In this document: piece by piece, positions 1 through 8,229 of the stretch
Layout of the letters: every line of letters starts with the position of its first letter
Numbering within the stretch: the stretch's first letter is position 1
IMG/VR virus record: IMGVR_UViG_2778261203_000005
Span: 1-8,229 of that record
Reading direction: 5' to 3' (one strand)
DNA length: 8,229 bases
Source of the DNA: a virus
Lineage: Duplodnaviria; Heunggongvirae; Uroviricota; Caudoviricetes
Position numbers and translations under genes: made by a program
Notes under the pieces: model-generated
The model's input: only the letters and a program-made list of their open reading frames with translations
What the model was told of the DNA's origin: nothing
The model's database searches: none

Positions 1-1005
1 TTAATCCCCCGTGGACACTGCGTGGACACTTACGCCACCTTTCAGCGGATTAAGGGCCACCGCATCCTGCAGGTAATCCGGTGCAAAATGCGCATATGCC
101 ATTGTTTGCTGAATGGTTGCGTGACCAAGAATCTTCTGAAGCGCAATAATGTTTCCTCCGTTCATCACAAAATGGCTGGCGAACGTATGCCGCAGCACAT
201 GTGCAGCCTGGCCTTTTGGTAAATCGGGCTTAACTCTTTTCAGCGCCAGGCAGAATTCCCGGTACTTCACCTCAAACAAGCCGCCTGTTTCTCTGGTTTT
301 GATCGCCTCACAAACTGCCTGCGAAATTGGCACTGTTCTCTTCCGGCCATTTTTGGTTTCAAGAAACGTTACACGGTTATGAACTATCTGTTCACCACGA
401 AGCTTACAAGCTTCACTCCAGCGCGCCCCTGTGCTTAAACACAAAAGCGCAACACGCCAGTAGTCGCCCTCCAGTGTATCGAGCAATAGCGCCACTTCCT
501 TCTGTGACAGGAACGCCATTTCTCGTGGAGATACATAAAGAATAGAAATTCCCCTTACTGGATGTTCTGCATCCCAAAGACCTATTTTTTTCAGCACGGT
601 AAACATTCCGGATAACCGATTCATGTACCTGTTAGCAGATGACGGTTTCAATCCTTCAGCTATCTTTTGAGAACGCCACGCGATAATTTTCAGCTTATCA
701 AGATCCACAGCCTGCATATCAGCGCCAAGCTCATTGATTATGTTGCGCAGTTGTTTTCGGTCTTCTTCCGCCTTACGCCTGTGCTGGCCGTGATACATCC
801 ACCACAACTCAAGCAAATCATTTAGCGTTCGACGATCACGGTAGCCCTGTATATATTCCCGCTTTTCAGCGTTCGCCATGATGTAGCGTTCAGTGGCCAC
901 CGCTACCGATTTTTTGTCAAATACCTTACGCACGCGCTTTCCCTTGCGTCCGTTCGGCCTGATGTCCAGCAAATAACGACCATCTTCGAGCTTCTTAATA
1001 GACAT
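1..1005 (-). CDS. int: Phage integrase, tyrosine recombinase (P2 Int-like), 334 aa
   Basis: The 339-aa ORF on the minus strand matches P2 integrase from memory (N-terminus SIKKLEDGRY..., C-terminal motifs HVLRHTFASHF and QQTMAYAHFAPDYLQDA..NPL). Catalytic tyrosine-recombinase residues are visible (ARWSEA, H-x-x-R, Y in TMAYAHF). The ORF track starts at a TTG at 1020; the ATG at 1005-1003 is preceded by GGAGGG with 7 nt spacing and gives the P2-like N-terminus, so I place the start there. The stop is at 3-1. Confidence 0.93.
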   Translation of the reverse strand: MSIKKLEDGRYLLDIRPNGRKGKRVRKVFDKKSVAVATERYIMANAEKREYIQGYRDRRTLNDLLELWWMYHGQHRRKAEEDRKQLRNIINELGADMQAVDLDKLKIIAWRSQKIAEGLKPSSANRYMNRLSGMFTVLKKIGLWDAEHPVRGISILYVSPREMAFLSQKEVALLLDTLEGDYWRVALLCLSTGARWSEACKLRGEQIVHNRVTFLETKNGRKRTVPISQAVCEAIKTRETGGLFEVKYREFCLALKRVKPDLPKGQAAHVLRHTFASHFVMNGGNIIALQKILGHATIQQTMAYAHFAPDYLQDAVALNPLKGGVSVHAVSTGD

Positions 1006-1101
1006 TACGAAGCCCTCCAATGAACCGCTCTACAATTTCTCCAGCTTCTTTCCAGCAATAATCAGACCAGACAAAAAGCAGGTCTAACCAGTTTTCTGGC
1101 C

Positions 1102-1422
1102 TCAGCGGGATAATTTTTGGATTGTTTCGGTTGAAACGCGATCTCCCTCCGAATTGCAGGAACCATCAAGAGAGAGAGCCGGAGAAATTTGCCCGACCTC
1201 CGGCATCGTTTCATCTGTTGATAACCAATAAGCATACTTCTTAAATTTAGGGTGTTTCGTAACCTTAAGTAAGGCACCCTCTGTTACTTGCTTCCCCCTC
1301 ACCTCATAGTTAGTTACCGTCCCATAAGGCAGCCCAACACAATCCGCAAACTCCTGGCGGGTCATACCTTCTGCTTCACGAATCAGGCGAAATTTTTCAC
1401 CCATGCTTGACAAAGATGCCAT
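1102..1422 (-). CDS. C: Immunity repressor, P2 C-type, 106 aa
   Basis: The translation MASLSSMGEKFRLIREAEGMTRQEFADCVGLPYGTVTNYE...HPKFKKYAYWLSTDE..PEVGQISPALS resembles P2 C repressor as I remember it (helix-turn-helix plus the QIAPAL-like C-terminus). It lies between int and a divergent cox, as in P2. The start is chosen at the ATG 1422-1420, 9 nt downstream of GGAGGA; the ORF-track start at 1476 would add an unlikely Cys-rich leader. Confidence 0.8.
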   Translation of the reverse strand: MASLSSMGEKFRLIREAEGMTRQEFADCVGLPYGTVTNYEVRGKQVTEGALLKVTKHPKFKKYAYWLSTDETMPEVGQISPALSLDGSCNSEGDRVSTETIQKLSR

Positions 1423-1461
1423 ATCGGGCATATCCTCCATCGAAACATGCCACATCGGGCA
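1407..1461 (+). promoter_or_regulatory. Candidate early promoter Pe (-35 TTGACA 1407-1412, -10 TATCCT 1431-1436) flanked by a 15-bp direct repeat (candidate C operators)
   Basis: A perfect TTGACA sits 18 nt upstream of TATCCT on the + strand, reading toward cox. ATGCCATATCGGGCA (1416-1430) and ATGCCACATCGGGCA (1447-1461) are 14/15 identical direct repeats 31 bp apart, bracketing the -10. P2 C repressor is known to bind direct repeats flanking the Pe -10. No experimental evidence is available here. Confidence 0.5.
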
Positions 1462-1480
1462 CAAACATAAAAACACTCAA

Positions 1481-1510
1481 ATAAGCCGATATAAGCCATT
1501 TTGAGCCATT
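1481..1510. promoter_or_regulatory. Three tandem imperfect 10-bp repeats (ATAAGCCGAT / ATAAGCCATT / TTGAGCCATT) just upstream of the cox RBS; candidate Cox-binding boxes over the Pc region
   Basis: The repeats are directly visible with helical (10 bp) periodicity, lying between the candidate Pe and the cox Shine-Dalgarno (AGGGAG 1521-1526). In P2, Cox represses Pc by binding several direct repeats. The Pc hexamers could not be placed confidently on the minus strand. Confidence 0.35.
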
Positions 1511-1535
1511 CGAACGAATTAGGGAGATTACCACA

Positions 1536-1823
1536 ATGAGCGAATCAGAGCTTGGGGGGTTCATTCAGGTAGCACCATATCCACTTGAAGCGGTGCCATA
1601 TCAACTATTCGCCAAGATGATCGGCCGCAAGGAATCCACAGTCAGAACCATGATTGACGCAGCAAAGCTACCGACAATTGACTTTGTGAAACCAGGTTCA
1701 GTAAAGACGCGTGCATCAGAAAACTGGGTATATCTGCCAGCATTTAACGAAGGCATGCGCAAAGCGTTTTTTGAGCAACCGAAAGAACGCCGCGACGCAT
1801 GGTTGTTGTGGCTGGGACTTTAG
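1536..1823 (+). CDS. cox: Cox-like excisionase / early-lytic regulator, 95 aa
   Basis: The translation ...VPYQLFAKMIGRKESTVRTMIDAAKLPTIDF....ENWVYLPAFNEGMRKAFFEQPKERRDAWLLWLGL aligns with P2 Cox from memory (IPYQEFAKLIG...VRRMID.GKLPVID...EYWVYLPAWN...PKEIRDGWLMWLGL). It has a good SD (AGGGAG, 9 nt spacing) and is divergent from C. Confidence 0.88.
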   Translation: MSESELGGFIQVAPYPLEAVPYQLFAKMIGRKESTVRTMIDAAKLPTIDFVKPGSVKTRASENWVYLPAFNEGMRKAFFEQPKERRDAWLLWLGL

Positions 1824-1829
1824 TCATAA

Positions 1830-2036
1830 ATGACCAGCCATATCATCAGCGCCATTCTGACCCTTGTTTTTATTGAGATAGGCGTAATAGCGATCTATTT
1901 GTTTCGCAAGTTAACGGGACATGAAGAACGCTTTATTGAACTCAGCATTGAATATATCGCCGCTTATACCAAAGGACTTTTCCCGGCAGCTATTGGGGCG
2001 ATGTTTATAGCGTTTGTTATCTGGTTTATCGGGTGA
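1830..2036 (+). CDS. Small hydrophobic protein, 68 aa, two predicted transmembrane helices; function unknown
   Basis: The ORF starts 7 nt after the cox stop. Two hydrophobic stretches are visible (IISAILTLVFIEIGVIAIYLF and LFPAAIGAMFIAFVIWFIG). There is no clear SD. Its position matches the small ORF that follows cox in P2-like phages. Confidence 0.45.
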   Translation: MTSHIISAILTLVFIEIGVIAIYLFRKLTGHEERFIELSIEYIAAYTKGLFPAAIGAMFIAFVIWFIG

Positions 2037-2063
2037 GAAACCTGACAACCCACAACTACTGCA

Positions 2064-2183
2064 ATGAGGGTAATTATGTGTGGCATGGACAAATTGGACC
2101 TTATGTTAATTGTAATACTATCAATTAACTTCGGTTACCTCTTAAGCGGCGCAATTCTCATGTGCGGAGGCAAACGAAAATGA
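2064..2183 (+). CDS. Possible 39-aa membrane peptide (MRVIMCGMDKLDLMLIVILSINFGYLLSGAILMCGGKRK)
   Basis: Found by manual translation; it is not in the ORF track because it is too short. It has a hydrophobic core and a basic C-terminus, and its stop overlaps the next ATG (ATGA). No SD is evident, so it is speculative. Confidence 0.2.
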   Translation: MRVIMCGMDKLDLMLIVILSINFGYLLSGAILMCGGKRK

Positions 2184-2287
2184 ACCAGCAGTCCGCAAAA
2201 CGTGAAAACAATGCGATGCGATTTAATCGCAAATATTTTGAGTTCGGCCTCTATGCCGGAATAATTAAATCTGTACAGAGTCTTTAA
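2180..2287 (+). CDS. Possible 35-aa basic peptide (MNQQSAKRENNAMRFNRKYFEFGLYAGIIKSVQSL)
   Basis: Found by manual translation. Its start overlaps the preceding stop (ATGA) and its stop lies 1 nt before the ATG at 2289. Speculative. Confidence 0.2.
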   Translation: MNQQSAKRENNAMRFNRKYFEFGLYAGIIKSVQSL

Positions 2288-2288
2288 C

Positions 2289-2630
2289 ATGAAACAGCAA
2301 CGTAATTCACGCTTTCGCAATGGTGCAGAACGCCACGCTAACCGTTTTGCTACCAGTGCATCACGCAGCAACATCCGCTACAGCCTGAGTGATACACACG
2401 CAACGCCGGATGGCTACCCAGTAAAACAAATCGGCGAGCATGCCTGGCTGATTGAGAAAGCTGGAATCGTGATCCACAAATGCCCACGCAATCCGTTTAC
2501 CGGAAACCGCATTTTTGCTCTAAGCAGTGGCGACAATCAGTTCGGGCAGGATTTCACATTATACGAAGCACTTCGCACGGTTGATCGTCTGCTTCGCGGG
2601 CAAAGTTTTATTAAACAGGCTGATTTATAA
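2289..2630 (+). CDS. Hypothetical early-operon protein, 113 aa, basic N-terminus
   Basis: A non-overlapping ORF in the same orientation as cox, tightly packed with its neighbours. I do not recognise a family; it may correspond to one of the small P2 early genes (B / orf80-83 region), but this is not verified. Confidence 0.5.
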   Translation: MKQQRNSRFRNGAERHANRFATSASRSNIRYSLSDTHATPDGYPVKQIGEHAWLIEKAGIVIHKCPRNPFTGNRIFALSSGDNQFGQDFTLYEALRTVDRLLRGQSFIKQADL

Positions 2631-2640
2631 CAGGTGCTTT

Positions 2641-2928
2641 ATGACCAAAGACCATGCACAAGGTGTATTTATCCGTTTTATTGATTTTCGCGGTGAACTG
2701 TTATTACGTGCATCCGCTATTGACGGAGTGACTCCGGCGGGTAAAAACGGAGCCGACGAAGCCACTTACGTTTATCTGAACGGCACGCGACTGCTTGTGG
2801 AACTTCCGTACCAGACCGTACGAGAAATCATTAGCGAAGCTGAAAAGGCACGCCAGGTTAATGGCGATGAACCCTATATCGAAATTATTTGTATGGATTC
2901 AGAAGCTGAAATACAGAAAGCAGATTAA
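2641..2928 (+). CDS. Hypothetical early-operon protein, 95 aa (MTKDHAQGVFIRFIDFRGELLLRA...)
   Basis: The ATG at 2641 starts 10 nt after the previous stop. The ORF-track start at 2527 would overlap the upstream gene by about 100 nt in another frame, so I prefer 2641. Family not recognised. Confidence 0.55.
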   Translation: MTKDHAQGVFIRFIDFRGELLLRASAIDGVTPAGKNGADEATYVYLNGTRLLVELPYQTVREIISEAEKARQVNGDEPYIEIICMDSEAEIQKAD

Positions 2929-2939
2929 AGGGCGTTGTG

Positions 2940-3182
2940 ATGGGCAAAGAATATAAAACTCTCATTAACAAAGCACTTGAGCGTTTTTATTTTCGCTTAA
3001 GTGCATCAGGCGCTCATGCTGAACGTGCGGCCCGTGACTCATTGACCAGAGCAATCCGAAGTCTGTATGACGTGGCTTTTTACGCTGATGATCTGGATGC
3101 ACTTAACGAACTTTCCGAGCTGATCTGTGCCGCAGAATGCGGGGAACATATTGAACCGTATAAGTTGGGGAATATCGCATGA
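2940..3182 (+). CDS. Hypothetical early-operon protein, 80 aa
   Basis: The ATG at 2940 is preceded by AAAGGG with 7 nt spacing. The predicted protein is acidic and helical-looking (…AFYADDLDALNELSELICAAECGEH…). Family not recognised. Confidence 0.55.
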   Translation: MGKEYKTLINKALERFYFRLSASGAHAERAARDSLTRAIRSLYDVAFYADDLDALNELSELICAAECGEHIEPYKLGNIA

Positions 3183-3293
3183 GTATATTTATCTCATGGC
3201 TTGTTCTGATTATTTCGGTGGCCTGCGCTATTGGGATTATGCGAATTATTCATTCAATAAAAAAGATTGAACGCTTTTTCACTGGCGAATAAC
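3179..3293 (+). CDS. Possible 37-aa single-pass membrane peptide (MSIFISWLVLIISVACAIGIMRIIHSIKKIERFFTGE)
   Basis: Found by manual translation. The ATG overlaps the upstream stop (ATGA). It has an N-terminal hydrophobic helix and a basic C-terminal tail, an architecture shared with small membrane toxins and holin-like peptides. Confidence 0.35.
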
Positions 3294-3378
3294 AGAGCAA
3301 ATAAAACCACAGATTAAATAAGAAAATGTAAAAACAATCCGCATTCGCGGAGGTATTCGCACACGCCAAGGAGGCGTA

Positions 3379-3582
3379 ATGGCAATTAAGCATTTTCCTG
3401 TCGTTCGTTTTACCTCCAGAGGGCGTGAATACGAAGTCGACGAACGCCTGATTACCACAATCGACAAACACCGTTCAGAAAAGGATGCACATCACATCTA
3501 TCTCACTGACGGCACTTACTTCTGCGCCACGAATGTGGTGCGGGTGAACCTTATCCGACAGGTACAGGAGTCACGCAGATGA
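3379..3582 (+). CDS. Hypothetical protein, 67 aa
   Basis: Strong SD (AAGGAGG 3368-3374) ahead of the ATG at 3379, preceded by an AT-rich, promoter-like 85-bp gap. The stop overlaps the next start (ATGA). Family not recognised; it has one Cys only, so it is not Ogr-like. Confidence 0.6.
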   Translation: MAIKHFPVVRFTSRGREYEVDERLITTIDKHRSEKDAHHIYLTDGTYFCATNVVRVNLIRQVQESRR

Positions 3583-3794
3583 CCATTCTGGACTATATCG
3601 CCGCCAACCCGAACGCAGGTGTGAAACGCGAGATTGCAACCCTTTCCCGCGCCCTGAAAAAAGCCGATTCCGCAGCCGAACCAGAAGACGCCAGCGCACA
3701 GCAGGCGCAGGACGAAAGCAGCAAAAGTAAAAAGACAACGCGGAAGCCTGCAACACGAAAAACCACCGCGACGCAGAAGGCGAAGCGCGGTTAA
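3579..3794 (+). CDS. Hypothetical protein, 71 aa, with Lys/Thr/Ala-rich basic low-complexity C-terminal tail
   Basis: Translationally coupled to the 67-aa ORF. The C-terminus (KSKKTTRKPATRKTTATQKAKRG) looks like a histone-like or nucleic-acid-binding tail. The GC content rises sharply from this ORF onward. Confidence 0.55.
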   Translation: MTILDYIAANPNAGVKREIATLSRALKKADSAAEPEDASAQQAQDESSKSKKTTRKPATRKTTATQKAKRG

Positions 3795-3811
3795 CGACTG
3801 ACCCCGTCAGC

Positions 3812-3882
3812 GGGCGGCGTGCGCGGTGTTCCGGTTTGACTCCGTGACCGTTTACACCGCGCACCCACCGCCCGATTTTTTT
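3812..3882 (+). terminator. Candidate rho-independent terminator: long GC-rich imperfect hairpin followed by a T7 run
   Basis: GTGCGCGGTGT (3819-3829) pairs perfectly with ACACCGCGCAC (3854-3864), extended by GGGCGG (3812-3817) with CCGCCC (3868-3873) across a small internal loop. The 24-nt loop has its own CGGT/ACCG pairing. The stem is followed by GA then TTTTTTT (3876-3882). The large loop is atypical, so it may instead be a regulatory structure. Confidence 0.45.
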
Positions 3883-3965
3883 CAGGAGTGAACCCCATGA
3901 GTATGGTTGCCAGAACTGAACCAGGACCCGCAGAGGACGACATCACCGATAAAGGAGAAGGACGA

Positions 3966-4358
3966 ATGAGCAACACATTTAAATTCAGCAGCCGAAGCGA
4001 AAATAATTTGCAGGGCGTAAATCCTGATCTGGTGAAAGTGACCCGACGGGCACTGGAAATCTCGGAAGTGGATTTTGGTATCACCGAAGGGTTGCGCAGC
4101 CGTTACCGCCAGAAGCAACTTGTGGCCACAGGTAAGAGCCAGACCATGAACAGCCGCCACCTTACGGGGCATGCCGTGGATGTTGTGGCTTATATCGGCA
4201 GCCAGGTGTCATGGGAATGGCCGCTGTACGAAAAAATCGCAGCAGCATTCAGACAGGCCAGCCGGGAACTGAATATTCCGGTGGAATGGGGCGGCGACTG
4301 GAAGACCCTGAAAGACGGACCGCATTTTCAGTTACCACACGGAGCCTATCCGGCATGA
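3966..4358 (+). CDS. Endolysin, peptidase M15 family (L-alanyl-D-glutamate peptidase, T5 Lys-like), 130 aa
   Basis: Zn-binding motifs of VanY/M15 peptidases are visible (SRHLTGHAVDVV and GGDW....GPHFQL). From the ATG at 3966 the protein aligns with phage T5 endolysin as I remember it (MS.FKF........VKPELQKVARRALEL..DF vs MSNTFKF...VNPDLVKVTRRALEISEVDF). SD AGGAGAAGG 4 nt upstream. An alternative upstream ATG at 3897 (SD CAGGAG) would add a 23-aa acidic extension. Confidence 0.9.
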   Translation: MSNTFKFSSRSENNLQGVNPDLVKVTRRALEISEVDFGITEGLRSRYRQKQLVATGKSQTMNSRHLTGHAVDVVAYIGSQVSWEWPLYEKIAAAFRQASRELNIPVEWGGDWKTLKDGPHFQLPHGAYPA

Positions 4359-4762
4359 AGCTCTGGCCCACGCTGGGTGTCGCTTTCCTTCTGATTGCCG
4401 GATGGGGAACATCCATGCGTCTGTCGTGGTCGCTGGGCCGGGAGAACGCCAGAAACGAAGCGCAGGCCAGCACCCTGAAAAGTACCGCCGACACCCTGAA
4501 TATCATCAGCGCCGGGGTACAGGATATGCAGCAGGTGCTGGCGCAACTCCGCGTGGAAAATCAGCAACGCAATCAGGACGGAGAGGTAAGACGTGAACAG
4601 CTACGCAACGATATTGCAAAAGATGAATGCGCCCACGCTTTGCCTGACGCTCGTTTTACTGACAGGCTGCGCAGGCACGCAGAACGCGCCACTGCCAGCG
4701 CCGTCAGTCCGGCTTATACCGCAGACGCTGACCATACCGGTAACGCCTCCCCCCTTCCCTGA
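4355..4762 (+). CDS. Rz-like inner-membrane spanin (i-spanin), 135 aa
   Basis: The ATG overlaps the endolysin stop (ATGA). It has an N-terminal transmembrane segment (LWPTLGVAFLLIAGWG) followed by a charged, coiled-coil-like periplasmic region (QDMQQVLAQLRVENQQRNQDGEVRREQLRNDIAKDE). Its position and architecture match P2 lysB and lambda Rz. Confidence 0.78.
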   Translation: MKLWPTLGVAFLLIAGWGTSMRLSWSLGRENARNEAQASTLKSTADTLNIISAGVQDMQQVLAQLRVENQQRNQDGEVRREQLRNDIAKDECAHALPDARFTDRLRRHAERATASAVSPAYTADADHTGNASPLP

Positions 4763-4913
4763 CACTCCCACATGGGGAAATCTCGGTATATGGGGCGACC
4801 GCCTTCTGGATGCACTGGAAACCTGTAACGCGGATAAACGGGCCATTGAATTACTGGAACAGCGCAGGCTGCAACGACTGAACAACGAGGATAACAACCA
4901 TGCTGAAAACTGA
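4623..4913 (+). CDS. Rz1-like outer-membrane lipoprotein spanin (o-spanin), 96 aa
   Basis: The start lies inside the Rz gene in a different frame. It has a signal peptide with lipobox LLTGC and a proline-rich mature region (PLPAPSVRLIPQTLTIPVTPPPFPDTP) typical of Rz1 and P2 lysC. It extends past the Rz stop and overlaps the start of R. Confidence 0.72.
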   Translation: MNAPTLCLTLVLLTGCAGTQNAPLPAPSVRLIPQTLTIPVTPPPFPDTPTWGNLGIWGDRLLDALETCNADKRAIELLEQRRLQRLNNEDNNHAEN

Positions 4914-5367
4914 TTCCCTGCGTGAAGCCATGACCCGTTCATGCCGATGGTGTCAGGCCAACCCGGAAAAATTCACCATTTTCGTGGAGAGCGGCAACAT
5001 TGAAACGACAGGAGAAACCCCATCGTTTGTTTACCGCTATCAGATGGTGATGTTTGTCATGGATTACGCCGGGGAGCTGGACGACCTCACGCTGCCGCTG
5101 CTGGCGTGGTTATCCGAAAATCAGCCACAGTTGTTGCTCAACCCTGAGCGTAATCAGGACATCAAATTCTCCGCCGTTATCAATGACGATGACAGCGCCG
5201 ATCTCCTGTTTACGCTCCCCCTGCGGGAACGCGTTCGCATCACGCGCAGCAGTCAGGGCACACCGCAGGCAGAACACCTGCCGGAGCCAAAACCCCGCCT
5301 GCCCTCTTCCGAAGGCGACTGGTCGCATGTATTCCAGGATGTGACGTGGGGTGAAAGCGATGGATAA
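4900..5367 (+). CDS. R: Tail completion protein R (P2 gpR-like), 155 aa
   Basis: The N-terminus MLKTDSLREAMT and internal LPLLAWLSENQPQLL match P2 gpR from memory (MLKPDSLRRAL..., VPVLAWLRENQPD). Same length as P2 gpR (155 aa). SD GAGGA 9 nt upstream. Confidence 0.88.
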   Translation: MLKTDSLREAMTRSCRWCQANPEKFTIFVESGNIETTGETPSFVYRYQMVMFVMDYAGELDDLTLPLLAWLSENQPQLLLNPERNQDIKFSAVINDDDSADLLFTLPLRERVRITRSSQGTPQAEHLPEPKPRLPSSEGDWSHVFQDVTWGESDG

Positions 5368-5995
5368 GGCATTCACCCGCGTGGATGAAACCTTTGAGGC
5401 CATCCGCGACAGCCTGAATCAGCAGGCCATCAATAACATCGCCAGAAAGCTGGCACAGGATTTACGCCGCGCCCAGCAGGCGCGTATCCGGTCACAGAAA
5501 GCGCCGGACGGGACCGCGTGGACACCACGCAGACGCCGCGTAACCCGGATACAGGAACGCATTCGCTTTATCTGGAATAACGAAGCACGCACGCTGAAAA
5601 ACTGGCATCACGACACGGGGAAATACGGGCGAACCATCACCGGGTGGGATGAGGATAAAAACAATATCCGTACGTTTTACCGGGATGACATCGACCGTTT
5701 TCTGGAAATACGCACCCGGCGCATCAACCAGGACAGCACAAAGCGCGTCCCCATGTTCGTAAAACTGCGCACCGCCCGCTACCTGAAAGCCCGTGCAGAT
5801 GCTTCCGGTGTGACGGTGGGTTACAGCGGCGTGGCCGCACGTATTGCACGCGTTCATCAGTTCGGTGAGCGCGATCAGGTTGCGCCGGGCATTTTCACCG
5901 ATTACCCGGTACGTGAGCTGCTGGGTATCAGCCAGGCAGATGAGCGCCTGATTTATAACACGGTGCTGGGCCGGATTGCGGAGGCTGTACGGTGA
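5360..5995 (+). CDS. S: Tail completion / virion morphogenesis protein S (P2 gpS-like), 211 aa
   Basis: The N-terminal region (IARKLAQDLRRAQQARIRSQKAPDGTAWTPRRRR) and C-terminal region (AARIARVHQFGERDQVA....TDYPVRELLGIS) match the gpS family from memory. The ATG at 5360 overlaps the R stop; the ORF-track start is a GTG at 5351. It is about 60 aa longer than I recall for P2 gpS. Confidence 0.85.
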   Translation: MDKAFTRVDETFEAIRDSLNQQAINNIARKLAQDLRRAQQARIRSQKAPDGTAWTPRRRRVTRIQERIRFIWNNEARTLKNWHHDTGKYGRTITGWDEDKNNIRTFYRDDIDRFLEIRTRRINQDSTKRVPMFVKLRTARYLKARADASGVTVGYSGVAARIARVHQFGERDQVAPGIFTDYPVRELLGISQADERLIYNTVLGRIAEAVR

Positions 5996-6573
5996 GCGCA
6001 GAACTCATGCGACTGCTGAGCAATATCATCCGTACCGGGATCATCTCTGAAGTTGATGAGAAGTCCTGGCGCGTGCGCGTTCGCAGCGGCGGACTGGAAA
6101 CAGGCTGGCTGCGCTGGAACACCACGCGCGCGGGAGCCTTCAATGTGTGGCTGCCGCCATCACCCGGCGAACAGGTGGTAATTGCCTGCATTGGCGGCAA
6201 CCCGGAAACCGCCATGATAATTGGCAGCCTGTGGAGTGATGCCAGTCCGGCCCCCGGCAAAAGCCTGAAAGAAATCGTGGTCAGCGCGCCGGACGGCGCG
6301 GTGTTCCGCTACGACGCGGACGCAGGCGCGCTGAGCGCCAGCGGCATGAAAACAGCCAGCCTGCAGGCATCCGTCAGCGTGACACTGGACGCGCCCGTCG
6401 TGGAATGCACAGACCTTCTGAGAACAGCGACGCTTGACGTCACAAAAGGGGGAAAGATGAGCGGCAATATCACGCACAGCGGCGGCGATTTCACCTCAAA
6501 CGGCATCACAGTGCATACGCATAAACACGGTGGCGTGAAAGGCGGCAGTGATTCGACAGGAGGCCCGCAGTGA
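5992..6573 (+). CDS. V: Baseplate assembly protein V (spike), P2 gpV-like, 193 aa
   Basis: Motifs IRTGIISEVD, GWLRW, GEQVVIACIGG, PDGAVFRYD, SGMKTAS, GNITHSGG.TSNGITVHTHKH match P2 gpV from memory. GTG start overlapping the S stop (GTGA), with GGAGG 6 nt upstream. Confidence 0.9.
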   Translation: MSAELMRLLSNIIRTGIISEVDEKSWRVRVRSGGLETGWLRWNTTRAGAFNVWLPPSPGEQVVIACIGGNPETAMIIGSLWSDASPAPGKSLKEIVVSAPDGAVFRYDADAGALSASGMKTASLQASVSVTLDAPVVECTDLLRTATLDVTKGGKMSGNITHSGGDFTSNGITVHTHKHGGVKGGSDSTGGPQ

Positions 6574-6920
6574 CAACCCGCTACACAGGAATGAATCCGG
6601 ACGGGACGGGAAACCTGAACGATACGGAGCACCTGAAACAGTCAGTCAGGGACATCCTGACCACCCCGCTGGCAAGCCGGGTTATGCGACGGGAATATGG
6701 CAGCCTTGTGCCTGATTTGATTGACGAACCCATGAATAACACCACGCGTCTGCAATGCATGAGTGCTGCCGTGATTGCACTGACGCGATGGGAACCCCGC
6801 ATTGCCCTGGACGCTATCGACGTTGTCTGGAAAGCGGGAGGCCGCGCCGGGGTGACGCTGTCGGGTACAGTCATGCAGACCATGCAGAATGTTGAATTAA
6901 CCATCACACTGAGGGAGTAA
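6570..6920 (+). CDS. W: Baseplate wedge protein W (GPW/gp25 family), 116 aa
   Basis: MTTRYTGMN...SRVMRREYGSL...WEPRIAL...VTLSGT matches P2 gpW from memory (MTARYLGMN...SRVMRRDYGSL...WEPRVTL). GTG start overlapping the V stop, with GGAGG 6 nt upstream. Confidence 0.9.
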   Translation: MTTRYTGMNPDGTGNLNDTEHLKQSVRDILTTPLASRVMRREYGSLVPDLIDEPMNNTTRLQCMSAAVIALTRWEPRIALDAIDVVWKAGGRAGVTLSGTVMQTMQNVELTITLRE

Positions 6921-6923
6921 ATC

Positions 6924-7820
6924 ATGCCTGCCGTTGACCTTTCCCAGTTACCAGAACCCGCCATCATCGCGGAGCCTGATTTTGAGGCAATTCTGGCTGA
7001 CACAAAGGCCATGATGATTGCAGCTTATCCCGCCGAACAGCGTGAAGTCGTTTCCGCCGCGCTGGAGCTGGAATCGGAACCCCTGAACGTTATCGCCCAG
7101 ACAACAGCGTTTCGTGAAATGCTGTTACGCCAGCGGGTCAATGAGGGTGCACGCGCCTGCATGTTAAGCCACAGCGCCGGAACAGACCTGGACAACCTCG
7201 CGGGCAATATGAACACAAAGCGCCTGGTTATCACTCCGGCAACGGATACCACCGACGCGGTGATGGAGAGCGACACCTCGCTGAGACTGCGGGCGCAGCG
7301 GGCGTACGACGGCCTGAGTGTTGCTGGCCCGTCAGGTGCATACGAGTATTTTGCCCGCAGCGCCAGCGGTCTGGTGCGTGATGCGCGGGCTATCAGTCCG
7401 TCTCCGGCAAATGTGACGGTTTCCATCCTGTCTACTGAAGGCGACGGCACAGCAACGGAGGCGTTGCTTAATACCGTTCGCGCCGTTCTGAATGCAGAGG
7501 ATACCCGCCCGGTGGCCGACCGCCTGACCGTACAGAGTGCCAGAATCGTGACATGGCGGCTGAATGCAAAACTGTACTTTTACCCCGGCCCGGAATCCGA
7601 ACCTATTCTGGCCGCGGCGGAATCGTCGTTCAGGAAGTGGCTGGCTGAGCAGGGGCTTATCGGTCAGGACGTGGCGTTGTCCGCCATTGCTGCCGCACTG
7701 CATGTACACGGTGTGCAACGCGTGGAGATAATCGAACCCACACAGAATATGGCCATCAGCGACATACAGGCGGCGCGCTGTGAGTCATTTACCATCAGCG
7801 AAGGTGGGCGCAATGAGTAA
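6924..7820 (+). CDS. J: Baseplate assembly protein J, P2 gpJ-like, 298 aa
   Basis: Extensive similarity to P2 gpJ from memory (LESEPL, RQRVNE.ARA.ML, AVMESDT..RLR.Q.A..GLSVAG..GAY.Y..RSA, RPVADRLTVQSA, YPGPESEPI.AAA, LSAI.AALHV.GVQRVE). SD GAGGGAG. Confidence 0.92.
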   Translation: MPAVDLSQLPEPAIIAEPDFEAILADTKAMMIAAYPAEQREVVSAALELESEPLNVIAQTTAFREMLLRQRVNEGARACMLSHSAGTDLDNLAGNMNTKRLVITPATDTTDAVMESDTSLRLRAQRAYDGLSVAGPSGAYEYFARSASGLVRDARAISPSPANVTVSILSTEGDGTATEALLNTVRAVLNAEDTRPVADRLTVQSARIVTWRLNAKLYFYPGPESEPILAAAESSFRKWLAEQGLIGQDVALSAIAAALHVHGVQRVEIIEPTQNMAISDIQAARCESFTISEGGRNE

Positions 7821-8229
7821 TTCACTGTTACCGCCATCAGCCAGCAGTTTCATGCGTTGTGCCGAAGCCGTCGGAACGCGCATTACAGACATTCCGGTAG
7901 ACCTCAACACGCTGTGGTCGCCGGACACATGCCCGGTGCATCTGCTGCCTTATCTCGCCTGGGCATTTTCCGTTGACCGCTGGGACCGCAACTGGCCGGA
8001 GGAAACAAAGCGCCAGGTGATTCGCGATGCGTGGCTGATACACCGACACAAGGGGACCATCAGCGCACTGCGAAGAGCCGTGGAGCCTCTCGGCTACCTG
8101 ATTGAAGTAAAGGAGTGGTGGCAACTCAACGAGGAGCCGGGAACATTTCGCATTGTTGTCGGAGTACTTGATCAGGGCATCCCCATAATGCCAATGGTGC
8201 GTGGATACGCTGGTCAGATGGTGCAATAG
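7813..8229 (+). CDS. I: Baseplate protein I, P2 gpI-like, 138 aa as read (ends exactly at window edge)
   Basis: The core LW.PDTCP..LLP.LAWAFSVDRWD..WPE.TKR.VIRDA..IH.HKGTI.A.RR.VEPLGYLI.V.EWW......PGTFR...GVL matches P2 gpI from memory. The ATG at 7813 overlaps the J stop (ATGAGTAA). The product is shorter than my recollection of P2 gpI (about 176 aa); the stop TAG sits at 8227-8229, the last bases of the window. Confidence 0.85.
   Translation: MSNSLLPPSASSFMRCAEAVGTRITDIPVDLNTLWSPDTCPVHLLPYLAWAFSVDRWDRNWPEETKRQVIRDAWLIHRHKGTISALRRAVEPLGYLIEVKEWWQLNEEPGTFRIVVGVLDQGIPIMPMVRGYAGQMVQ

Follow-up and report, generated by a model that had tools for sequence, protein, structure and literature searches.

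Seven small early-operon genes behind cox in a P88-like prophage: a variable slot, a conserved core and three predicted membrane proteins

Introduction

What do the small genes directly behind cox do for a P88-like temperate phage: do they serve its own replication, or are they directed at the host? We addressed this question at positions 1830-3293 of an 8,229-nucleotide (nt) stretch of DNA (IMG/VR virus record IMGVR_UViG_2778261203_000005, positions 1 to 8,229; hereafter the window), where a sequence-only reading had proposed an early operon made of unrecognised small open reading frames (ORFs), up to three of them encoding tiny membrane peptides. With slightly better than even confidence, we read this segment as a non-replicative, promoter-proximal part of the early (Pe) operon, composed of a variable slot and a conserved core, that would provide a set of early accessory or host-directed functions.

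Results

Seven small genes in one string

All seven ORFs proposed between cox and the cassette at 3379 were found in place, on the + strand:

1830-2036, + strand: predicted two-helix membrane protein of 68 amino acids (aa), phrog_14475; grand average of hydropathy (GRAVY) 1.20, two segments of transmembrane (TM) length
2076-2183, + strand: predicted single-pass membrane peptide of 35 aa, MCGMDKLDLMLIVILSINFGYLLSGAILMCGGKRK; GRAVY 0.98, C-terminal GGKRK, GAGGG Shine-Dalgarno (SD) sequence 5 nt upstream of the ATG
2180-2287, + strand: hydrophilic basic ORF of 35 aa, MNQQSAKRENNAMRFNRKYFEFGLYAGIIKSVQSL; GRAVY -0.69, GGAGG 9 nt upstream, ATGA overlap with the preceding ORF
2289-2630, + strand: DUF4761 protein of 113 aa, Pfam PF15958
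2641-2928, + strand: acidic orphan protein of 95 aa, phrog_3800
2940-3182, + strand: DUF4754 protein of 80 aa, Pfam PF15946
3179-3292, + strand: predicted single-pass membrane peptide of 37 aa, MSIFISWLVLIISVACAIGIMRIIHSIKKIERFFTGE; GRAVY 1.26, basic juxtamembrane segment RIIHSIKKIER, ATGA overlap with DUF4754

Counted from cox onward, the spacing is 6 nt, 27-39 nt, an ATGA overlap (2180-2183), 1 nt, 10 nt, 11 nt and a second ATGA overlap (3179-3182), and the packing at gaps of 0-12 nt or ATGA overlaps that had been proposed holds everywhere except for the 27-39 nt after the 68-aa ORF; an alternative ATG at 2064 gives a 39-aa version of the 2076-2183 ORF. The maximum Kyte-Doolittle means over 19 residues were 2.48, 2.13 and 2.68 for the 68-aa, the 35-aa (2076-2183) and the 37-aa product. 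If a small inner-membrane protein is recognised by at least about 19 consecutive hydrophobic residues that average 2 or higher on the Kyte-Doolittle scale and have charged flanks, these three products are predicted to belong in that class, and the hydrophobic core is kept in all of their variants. Two of the three suspected tiny membrane peptides (2076-2183 and 3179-3292) are thereby retained, the same number that the sequence-only reading had called hydrophobic, while the third (2180-2287) is hydrophilic; similarly, the hydrophobicity ascribed to the 68-, 35- and 37-aa products stands, but the basic C-termini ascribed to them are reduced to the GGKRK of the 35-aa peptide, as the 68-aa protein ends in VIWFIG and the last residue of the 37-aa peptide is acidic.

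The description of the ORFs as unrecognised did not survive. Two belong to Pfam families over the full length of the model, namely PF15958 for DUF4761 (2e-69, 230.7 bits, model positions 1-105 of 105) and PF15946 for DUF4754 (2.8e-54, 181.7 bits, model positions 1-80 of 80), both with a gathering threshold of 27 bits; five fall in PHROG families (among them phrogs 14475, 2492, 3800 and 2549), and none of these Pfam or PHROG families carries a functional annotation. RefSeq, through the Prokaryotic Genome Annotation Pipeline (PGAP), annotates five of the seven and skips both 35-aa ORFs, whereas the record of phage P88_4B11 (NC_049391) annotates all seven, including both 35-aa ORFs (2076-2183 is its gp42). 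The 37-aa peptide is annotated by PGAP as WP_000021652.1 and in P88 as 'membrane protein'. The seven genes are thus already annotated, as DUFs or hypotheticals, at 99.7-100% identity and are not new in kind.

Position in the early operon and relation to P2 and 186

The genes upstream of the segment provide the frame for its assignment:

1-1005, - strand: integrase
1102-1422, - strand: C repressor (helix-turn-helix)
1407-1436, + strand: candidate early promoter Pe, sigma-70-like TTGACA-18-TATCCT, matching the consensus at 10/12 positions
1536-1823, + strand: cox, first gene of the early operon (Pfam Phage_Cox, 1.3e-22; 56% identical to P2 Cox; annotated as Cox family DNA-binding protein)

Over positions 1-3611, the window is 99.7-99.9% identical in DNA to P88_4B11 (Xuanwuvirus, Peduoviridae) and to Escherichia coli prophages adjoining pdxB; the part matched is the left end of these P88-like prophages, which adjoin pdxB in many E. 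coli strains. The features that characterise a P2-family Pe operon, i.e., divergent C and cox, a face-to-face promoter switch and early genes on the same strand, are all found here, and the -35 hexamer of the candidate Pe overlaps the first codons of the divergent C gene, a position equal to that of the annotated P2 Pe. In intact relatives, the gene string is followed by winged-helix, Ead/Ea22-like, ash or derepression, and 121-aa genes, and then by the replication endonuclease; the replication gene A is deleted in the window itself. Because of this gene order, the Pe-like site and the same-strand run to the replication endonuclease in intact relatives, we assign 1830-3293 to the stretch of the early (Pe) operon nearest the promoter, in a P88-like temperate phage integrated next to pdxB. 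The early operon that had been suspected behind cox is borne out, as cox is confirmed by its Pfam and P2 Cox matches and a Pe-like promoter is present.

The nearest relative in gene content is P88_4B11, whose gp41-gp47 are the same seven ORFs in the same order (99.7% DNA identity over 1-3611). P88 (NC_026014) shares the core of DUF4761, a 92-aa protein, DUF4754 and the 37-aa peptide as gp04-gp07, but lacks the 68-aa gene and a 252-nt segment; complete P88-like phages differ from the window prophage in that the latter is deleted past 3611 and again at 3951/3952. The early operon of P2 is alike in arrangement, with C and a Pe/Pc switch, cox, small ORFs and then A, yet none of its small ORFs, i.e., orf78, B, orf80 (DUF2732), orf81, orf82 (a DksA-like zinc finger) and orf83 (DUF5405), matches a window ORF, and P2 has no membrane peptides in this stretch. 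In the early lytic operon of coliphage 186, fil (a cell-division inhibitor, 75 aa) and dhr (a host replication inhibitor, 66 aa) are similarly placed, as small non-essential genes directly after the excisionase/switch gene and before replication gene A, whereas 186 has cII between apl and fil, and sequence similarity to the window ORFs is lacking (best BLASTP E 0.036-0.6 over 10-17 residues). BLASTP of the window ORFs against P2 orf78, B and orf80-83 and 186 cII, fil, dhr and CP80-84 found no relative besides cox, in line with the absence of a P2 B/A-type replication protein noted earlier; BLASTP and hhalign gave no assignment of the larger ORFs to a known P2 early protein, and the DUF4754 profile showed no relation to P2 B (hhalign probability 1.1%).

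Wider searches gave a similar picture. Sequence-profile searches of the PDB with DUF4761, the 95-aa protein and DUF4754 returned nothing or chance matches (P450 reductase, designed helical proteins), those of DUF4754 being designed helical proteins only, and a BFVD search yielded only weak matches, all to little-studied phage proteins of small size; a few carry the label FlbD-like, which gives FlbD/SwrD-like small beta proteins as a lead for the 95-aa protein. PADLOC-DB gave no component match except for one 11-bit chance match of DUF4754 to a type IIG enzyme, NCBIfam gave no match for the window ORFs, and Rfam no relevant family in the region. A full-text literature search found no paper mentioning DUF4761 or DUF4754 and nothing functional on the families or the genus, and papers on P88, phiSM, P2-like diversity and P2 defence hotspots are silent on these genes. 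By these comparisons, the seven appear to have no characterised relative, whether among P2 and 186 early proteins or elsewhere.

Coding conservation of all seven ORFs

To the conservation check that had been proposed for the reading frames in related prophages, the answer was purifying selection on the core genes (dN/dS 0-0.48) and conservation as coding sequence for the others, the tiny ones included. We compared 18 loci (six phage records, nine E. coli prophages and three GTDB genome loci), a set later widened to more than 100 loci with IMG/VR contigs, and calculated the ratio of non-synonymous to synonymous substitution rates (dN/dS) by the Nei-Gojobori method for each locus against the window. 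The ratio stayed below 0.5 for every ORF, at 0.15-0.35 for the 68-aa ORF, 0.04-0.22 for DUF4761, 0.09-0.37 for the 95-aa ORF, 0-0.13 for DUF4754 (0.46 against the most divergent locus, L018) and 0.06-0.48 for the 37-aa ORF, and ORF lengths and overlaps were preserved among loci. From this pattern of substitution, all seven ORFs evolve as protein-coding sequence does. Translation is probable for each of the three tiny ORFs, with the best support for the 37-aa ORF and the least for 2180-2287.

A conserved core and its possible part in replication

Of 5426 complete E. coli genomes, 1428 (about 26%, O157:H7 and ST131 strains included) carry DUF4761, the 92-95-aa protein, DUF4754 and the 37-aa peptide, together with the 67-aa gene at 3379. 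The core is found behind at least three immunity regions (with a 95-aa Cox, a 173-aa Cox or a Cro-like protein) and with varied integrases and attachment sites. Its near-invariant member is DUF4754, which in the best 80 IMG/VR loci is 100% identical in amino acids in spite of synonymous change. In all 98 loci holding DUF4754, the ATG of the 37-aa peptide overlaps the DUF4754 stop (ATGA), and the peptide occurs there in 35 variants of 30-50 aa, each with its hydrophobic core intact. This coupled peptide persists in a Salmonella locus (34% identical) and in L018 (59% identical), where DUF4754 itself is only 34-53% identical. The 95-aa gene is absent or replaced in two loci (L017, L018).

AlphaFold2 models predict for DUF4761 a disordered basic N-terminus, a five-strand domain and a C-terminal helix (predicted local distance difference test, pLDDT, 70). 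The model of the 95-aa protein combines six strands and a helix in one domain (pLDDT 80), after which the chain ends in an acidic tail; DUF4754 is probably helical, judged by its composition. The net charge is -7 for the 95-aa protein and -3 for DUF4754. The families are narrow: among 5.8 billion proteins, DUF4761 forms 154 clusters and the 95-aa protein 107, and these two families and that of the 68-aa protein come nearly all from Escherichia, Shigella, Salmonella, Citrobacter and Cronobacter, with DUF4761 present in 3 of 185,579 GTDB species representatives (three loci). When 1.84 billion proteins were searched exhaustively with a hidden Markov model of the 95-aa family, 20 representatives came up, of which P0283 is a spurious repeat protein, and the remote matches held no informative domain. 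On account of a pattern common to both, the 95-aa protein was also considered as a paralogue of the 67-aa protein (3379-3582), which was rejected (BLASTP E 0.7, hhalign probability 0.4%).

Might this core (DUF4761, DUF4754 and possibly the 95-aa protein) instead be the phage's own machinery for replication or early regulation, either as a substitute for P2 gpB in helicase loading or as an antitermination or translation-coupling factor for reaching gene A? That it precedes the replication endonuclease in all intact relatives, that the early regions examined have no annotated P2 B homologue, and that DUF4754 is nearly invariant (dN/dS 0-0.03 in most comparisons) all speak for such a function, and the arginine-rich N-terminus of DUF4761, disordered in the model, could bind nucleic acid. 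Yet the proteins resemble neither P2 B and orf80-83 nor 186 CP80-84 in sequence or profile, the families are confined to P88-like elements of Enterobacteriaceae, a much narrower range than that of the A-type replication module, and a membrane peptide coupled to DUF4754 would be unexpected for a replication factor. We consider a replicative role unlikely, and the accessory role remains the one we favor.

Two further observations concern the core. Within and past the 95-aa gene, the window has 53 codons without a stop in the +1 frame (2795-2956), and several relatives of the 95-aa protein with 101-104 aa (P0152, P0164, P0172, P0192, P0205 and P0208) switch into this frame at differing points, ending ...KLKYRKQIKGRCDGQRI; these recurrent switches are probably independent frameshift errors or pseudogenes, seen because the frame happens to be open. 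Behind the core, an 86-nt gap (3293-3378) separates the 37-aa and 67-aa genes, and many relatives (L003, L005, L010-L013, L015-L017) carry a hypothetical gene of 136-138 aa in its place, by which comparison the gap can be taken as a second variable slot of the operon.

A variable slot behind cox

The interval between cox and DUF4761 differs from locus to locus, being empty or filled by the 68-aa gene, by the 68-aa gene and a 252-nt segment (2037-2288) carrying both 35-aa ORFs, or by a 140-aa gene with a reverse 63-aa gene. Among the 5426 complete genomes, 332 have the 68-aa gene and 235 the 252-nt segment. The 68-aa protein (phrog_14475 at 2e-41) keeps a length of 67-68 aa in nine divergent loci at 60-75% identity, and its 47 clusters among 5.8e9 proteins are all from Escherichia, Shigella or Salmonella. 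At first look, the 252-nt segment was found only in copies of at least 97.9% identity, in these 235 genomes and three phage records, and both 35-aa ORFs seemed to have no divergent relative, an impression that was overturned by the IMG/VR loci, where contigs L098 and L129-L131 hold a second allele of about 70% DNA identity.

This second allele bears on the notion that both 35-aa ORFs are non-functional, i.e., debris left by the insertion of 252 nt and by duplication of part of the DUF4761 5' end, with frames that stay open by chance. In the second allele, the 2076-2183 ORF keeps its 35 codons, ATG, SD sequence and ATGA overlap, and the peptide is 63% identical with its TM core and C-terminal KRK retained; dN/dS is 0.22 in frame and 0.72 and 2.4 in the other frames, both of which contain stops, and differences per codon position are 13/5/16. 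For the 2180-2287 ORF compared with L098, the proportion of non-synonymous differences (pN) is 0.28 and that of synonymous differences (pS) 0.86 in frame, again with stops in the other frames. Hence, start, SD sequence, ATGA overlap and frame of both ORFs are kept across 32% nucleotide divergence. Furthermore, the motif RF.RKYFE.G.YAG of the 2180-2287 product is conserved in three gene arrangements, as it occurs also in a free-standing 62-aa ORF of L098 and fused in frame to DUF4761 in variants of 146-152 aa (P0007, P0025, L003, L015, L016), the conserved half of this extension showing synonymous changes only between L003 and L015. On the side of debris are that PGAP calls neither ORF, that the segment exists in two allelic types only, and that near-identical copies of the second ORF show four non-synonymous, one synonymous and one frameshift change. 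Upon shuffling 2037-2288, an ORF of at least 35 aa arose in 25% of cases, as chance openness would have it, but two ATG-started ORFs of this length together arose in 1.6% and a TM-like one in 0.2%. Weighing these, we regard debris as distinctly unlikely and retain both as probable genes.

By the shared motif, the 2180-2287 ORF is homologous to an optional N-terminal extension of longer DUF4761 variants, an extension that itself seems to have arisen when the 5' end of DUF4761 was duplicated in part (MNKQQRN... compared with MKQQRN...). At 2266-2291, the SD sequence of DUF4761 is weaker in the window lineage (ACAGAG) than in relatives (ACGGAG), and the 2180-2287 stop lies 1 nt ahead of the DUF4761 ATG (TAA-C-ATG, 2285-2291), such that DUF4761 translation in this lineage may depend on termination-reinitiation from the 35-aa leader ORF. 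Reverse-strand ORFs also occur inside the slot, with 130 aa in L098 (2005-2397, - strand) and 63 aa in L005 and L011 (- strand), consistent with a moron-type insertion site.

A possible early accessory role at the host membrane

Our best guess from the combined sequence data is a host-directed, membrane-targeted early accessory role. Once the C repressor is lifted, the genes would be transcribed from Pe and translated as a coupled string through the ATGA overlaps at 2180 and 3179 and the TAA-C-ATG at 2285-2291. The 37-aa peptide would insert into the inner membrane and, following the positive-inside rule, keep its basic C-terminal segment on the cytoplasmic side, and it would work as a pair with the near-invariant, soluble DUF4754 protein, and the set, with three of its products at the cytoplasmic membrane, would exert early accessory or host-directed functions. 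In this, it would be the positional counterpart of 186 fil/dhr and P2 orf78-83, as opposed to replication or virion proteins.

Several points weigh against this proposal. Its functional part draws on position, size and hydrophobicity only; DUF4754, with its dN/dS of about 0, looks more like a protein tied to an essential phage process than like an arms-race factor; and the finding that core genes are always present is partly ascertainment, since the loci were retrieved via these same genes. In addition, a 1-nt deletion in the near-identical copy L023 cuts the 2180-2287 ORF to 27 aa, and the window prophage has lost replication, head and holin genes, such that its operon may never serve a productive lytic cycle.

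More specifically, DUF4754 and its ATGA-coupled peptide of about 37 aa, with DUF4761 upstream, could form an undescribed two-component early effector at the E. coli inner membrane, an idea that we hold tentatively and think unlikely to be right in this form; just as tentative is that such an effector would block, e.g., division, transport or a membrane-bound defence sensor. If true, it would be among the commonest unrecognised phage-host interaction modules in E. coli, present in about a quarter of complete genomes.

The soluble acidic proteins (the 95-aa protein and DUF4754) might alternatively act early against restriction or abortive infection. Their inferred early expression, small size, acidic charge and narrow, host-specific range fit many known anti-defence proteins, and the 95-aa gene is replaceable (L017, L018). 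Recognised anti-defence genes were found in only 28 of 1511 P2-like prophages, so that unrecognised ones probably exist (bioRxiv 10.64898/2026.02.27.708500). DUF4754, however, shows almost no amino-acid variation, unlike arms-race genes. In P2-like phages, the variable hotspots are reportedly the Z/fun and tin/old regions (work of Rousset and colleagues from 2022), and the present genes lie outside these. An anti-defence role for the two acidic proteins is, in our judgment, highly unlikely.

Least probable of all, and very improbable, is that the 68-, 35- and 37-aa membrane peptides are toxins, superinfection-exclusion or abortive-infection effectors on behalf of the lysogen, with the 37-aa peptide and DUF4754 as a toxin-neutraliser pair: the constant coupling of the peptide to a soluble partner (98/98 loci), the moron-like behavior of the slot and a small size with one TM helix and a basic segment, which we take to resemble the type I toxins Ldr and Hok, are outweighed by the location of the genes behind Pe, a promoter kept silent by the C repressor in lysogens, by internal promoter-like sites that do not exceed the shuffled level (3 found, 4.1 expected), by the lack of a match to Pfam type I or small membrane toxin families (Hok, Ldr, Fst, TisB, Ibs etc.) at E up to 1 or to PADLOC, and by the absence of an Rfam antisense family. 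Near the membrane peptides, no promoter-like site was found on the - strand either, although an unknown small RNA could escape such scans. Sub-threshold Pfam matches were DUF6007 and PET117 for the 37-aa peptide (E about 0.2) and DUF5540 for the 68-aa protein (E 0.038), with none at E up to 1 for the 35-aa peptide. Complete P88-like phages do carry a MokW/Hok-like host-killing gene near the other prophage end (L002 537-677, which is NC_049391 gp32; L004 1-20), and the family thus has at least one recognised small membrane toxin elsewhere.

As a sequence finding, the set is ordinary, because its genes are already annotated and filed as DUFs and PHROGs; what is added is comparative support for the two 35-aa ORFs that PGAP leaves out, both of them probably genuine genes. 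The 80-aa protein, which hardly varies, and the 37-aa predicted membrane peptide presumably coupled to it in translation make a clean, testable experimental unit, and the two small predicted membrane proteins in the slot behind cox are likewise testable. Should any of them prove to be a host-takeover, exclusion or anti-defence factor, a gap would be filled, since P2-like prophages yield almost no recognised anti-defence genes.

Deletions in the window prophage and a mislabelled relative

Downstream of the segment, the ORF at 3579-3794 is a fusion of about 9 codons of a winged-helix (MarR-like) early gene with the C-terminus of the small terminase (phrog_5997, 1e-16). The match to the early region ends at 3611 and that to the late region begins at 3606, with a 6-bp overlap, CAACCC; by this early/late junction (3606-3611), the entire block from replication and partition to portal, capsid and terminase is deleted. 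The junction recurs in none of the complete E. coli genomes or retrieved loci. A second deletion lies at the junction 3951|3952, within 3888-4358: compared with phage 500465-2, 947 bp are missing, and with them most of the head-completion gene, the small gene following it and the holin, such that about 21 head-completion codons are fused to the sequence immediately before the endolysin. The window thus reads as a doubly deleted prophage remnant or a mis-joined assembly, and with the two deletions its early operon cannot lead to a productive cycle. Finally, one locus of the comparison, L009 (NZ_JBQPOM010000071.1, labelled Vagococcus sp. WN89Y), holds a P88-like early region in which the amino-acid sequences are 84-98% identical to those of the E. 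coli genes, and its presence in an assembly labelled as the Gram-positive Vagococcus is most likely due to contamination or mislabelling.

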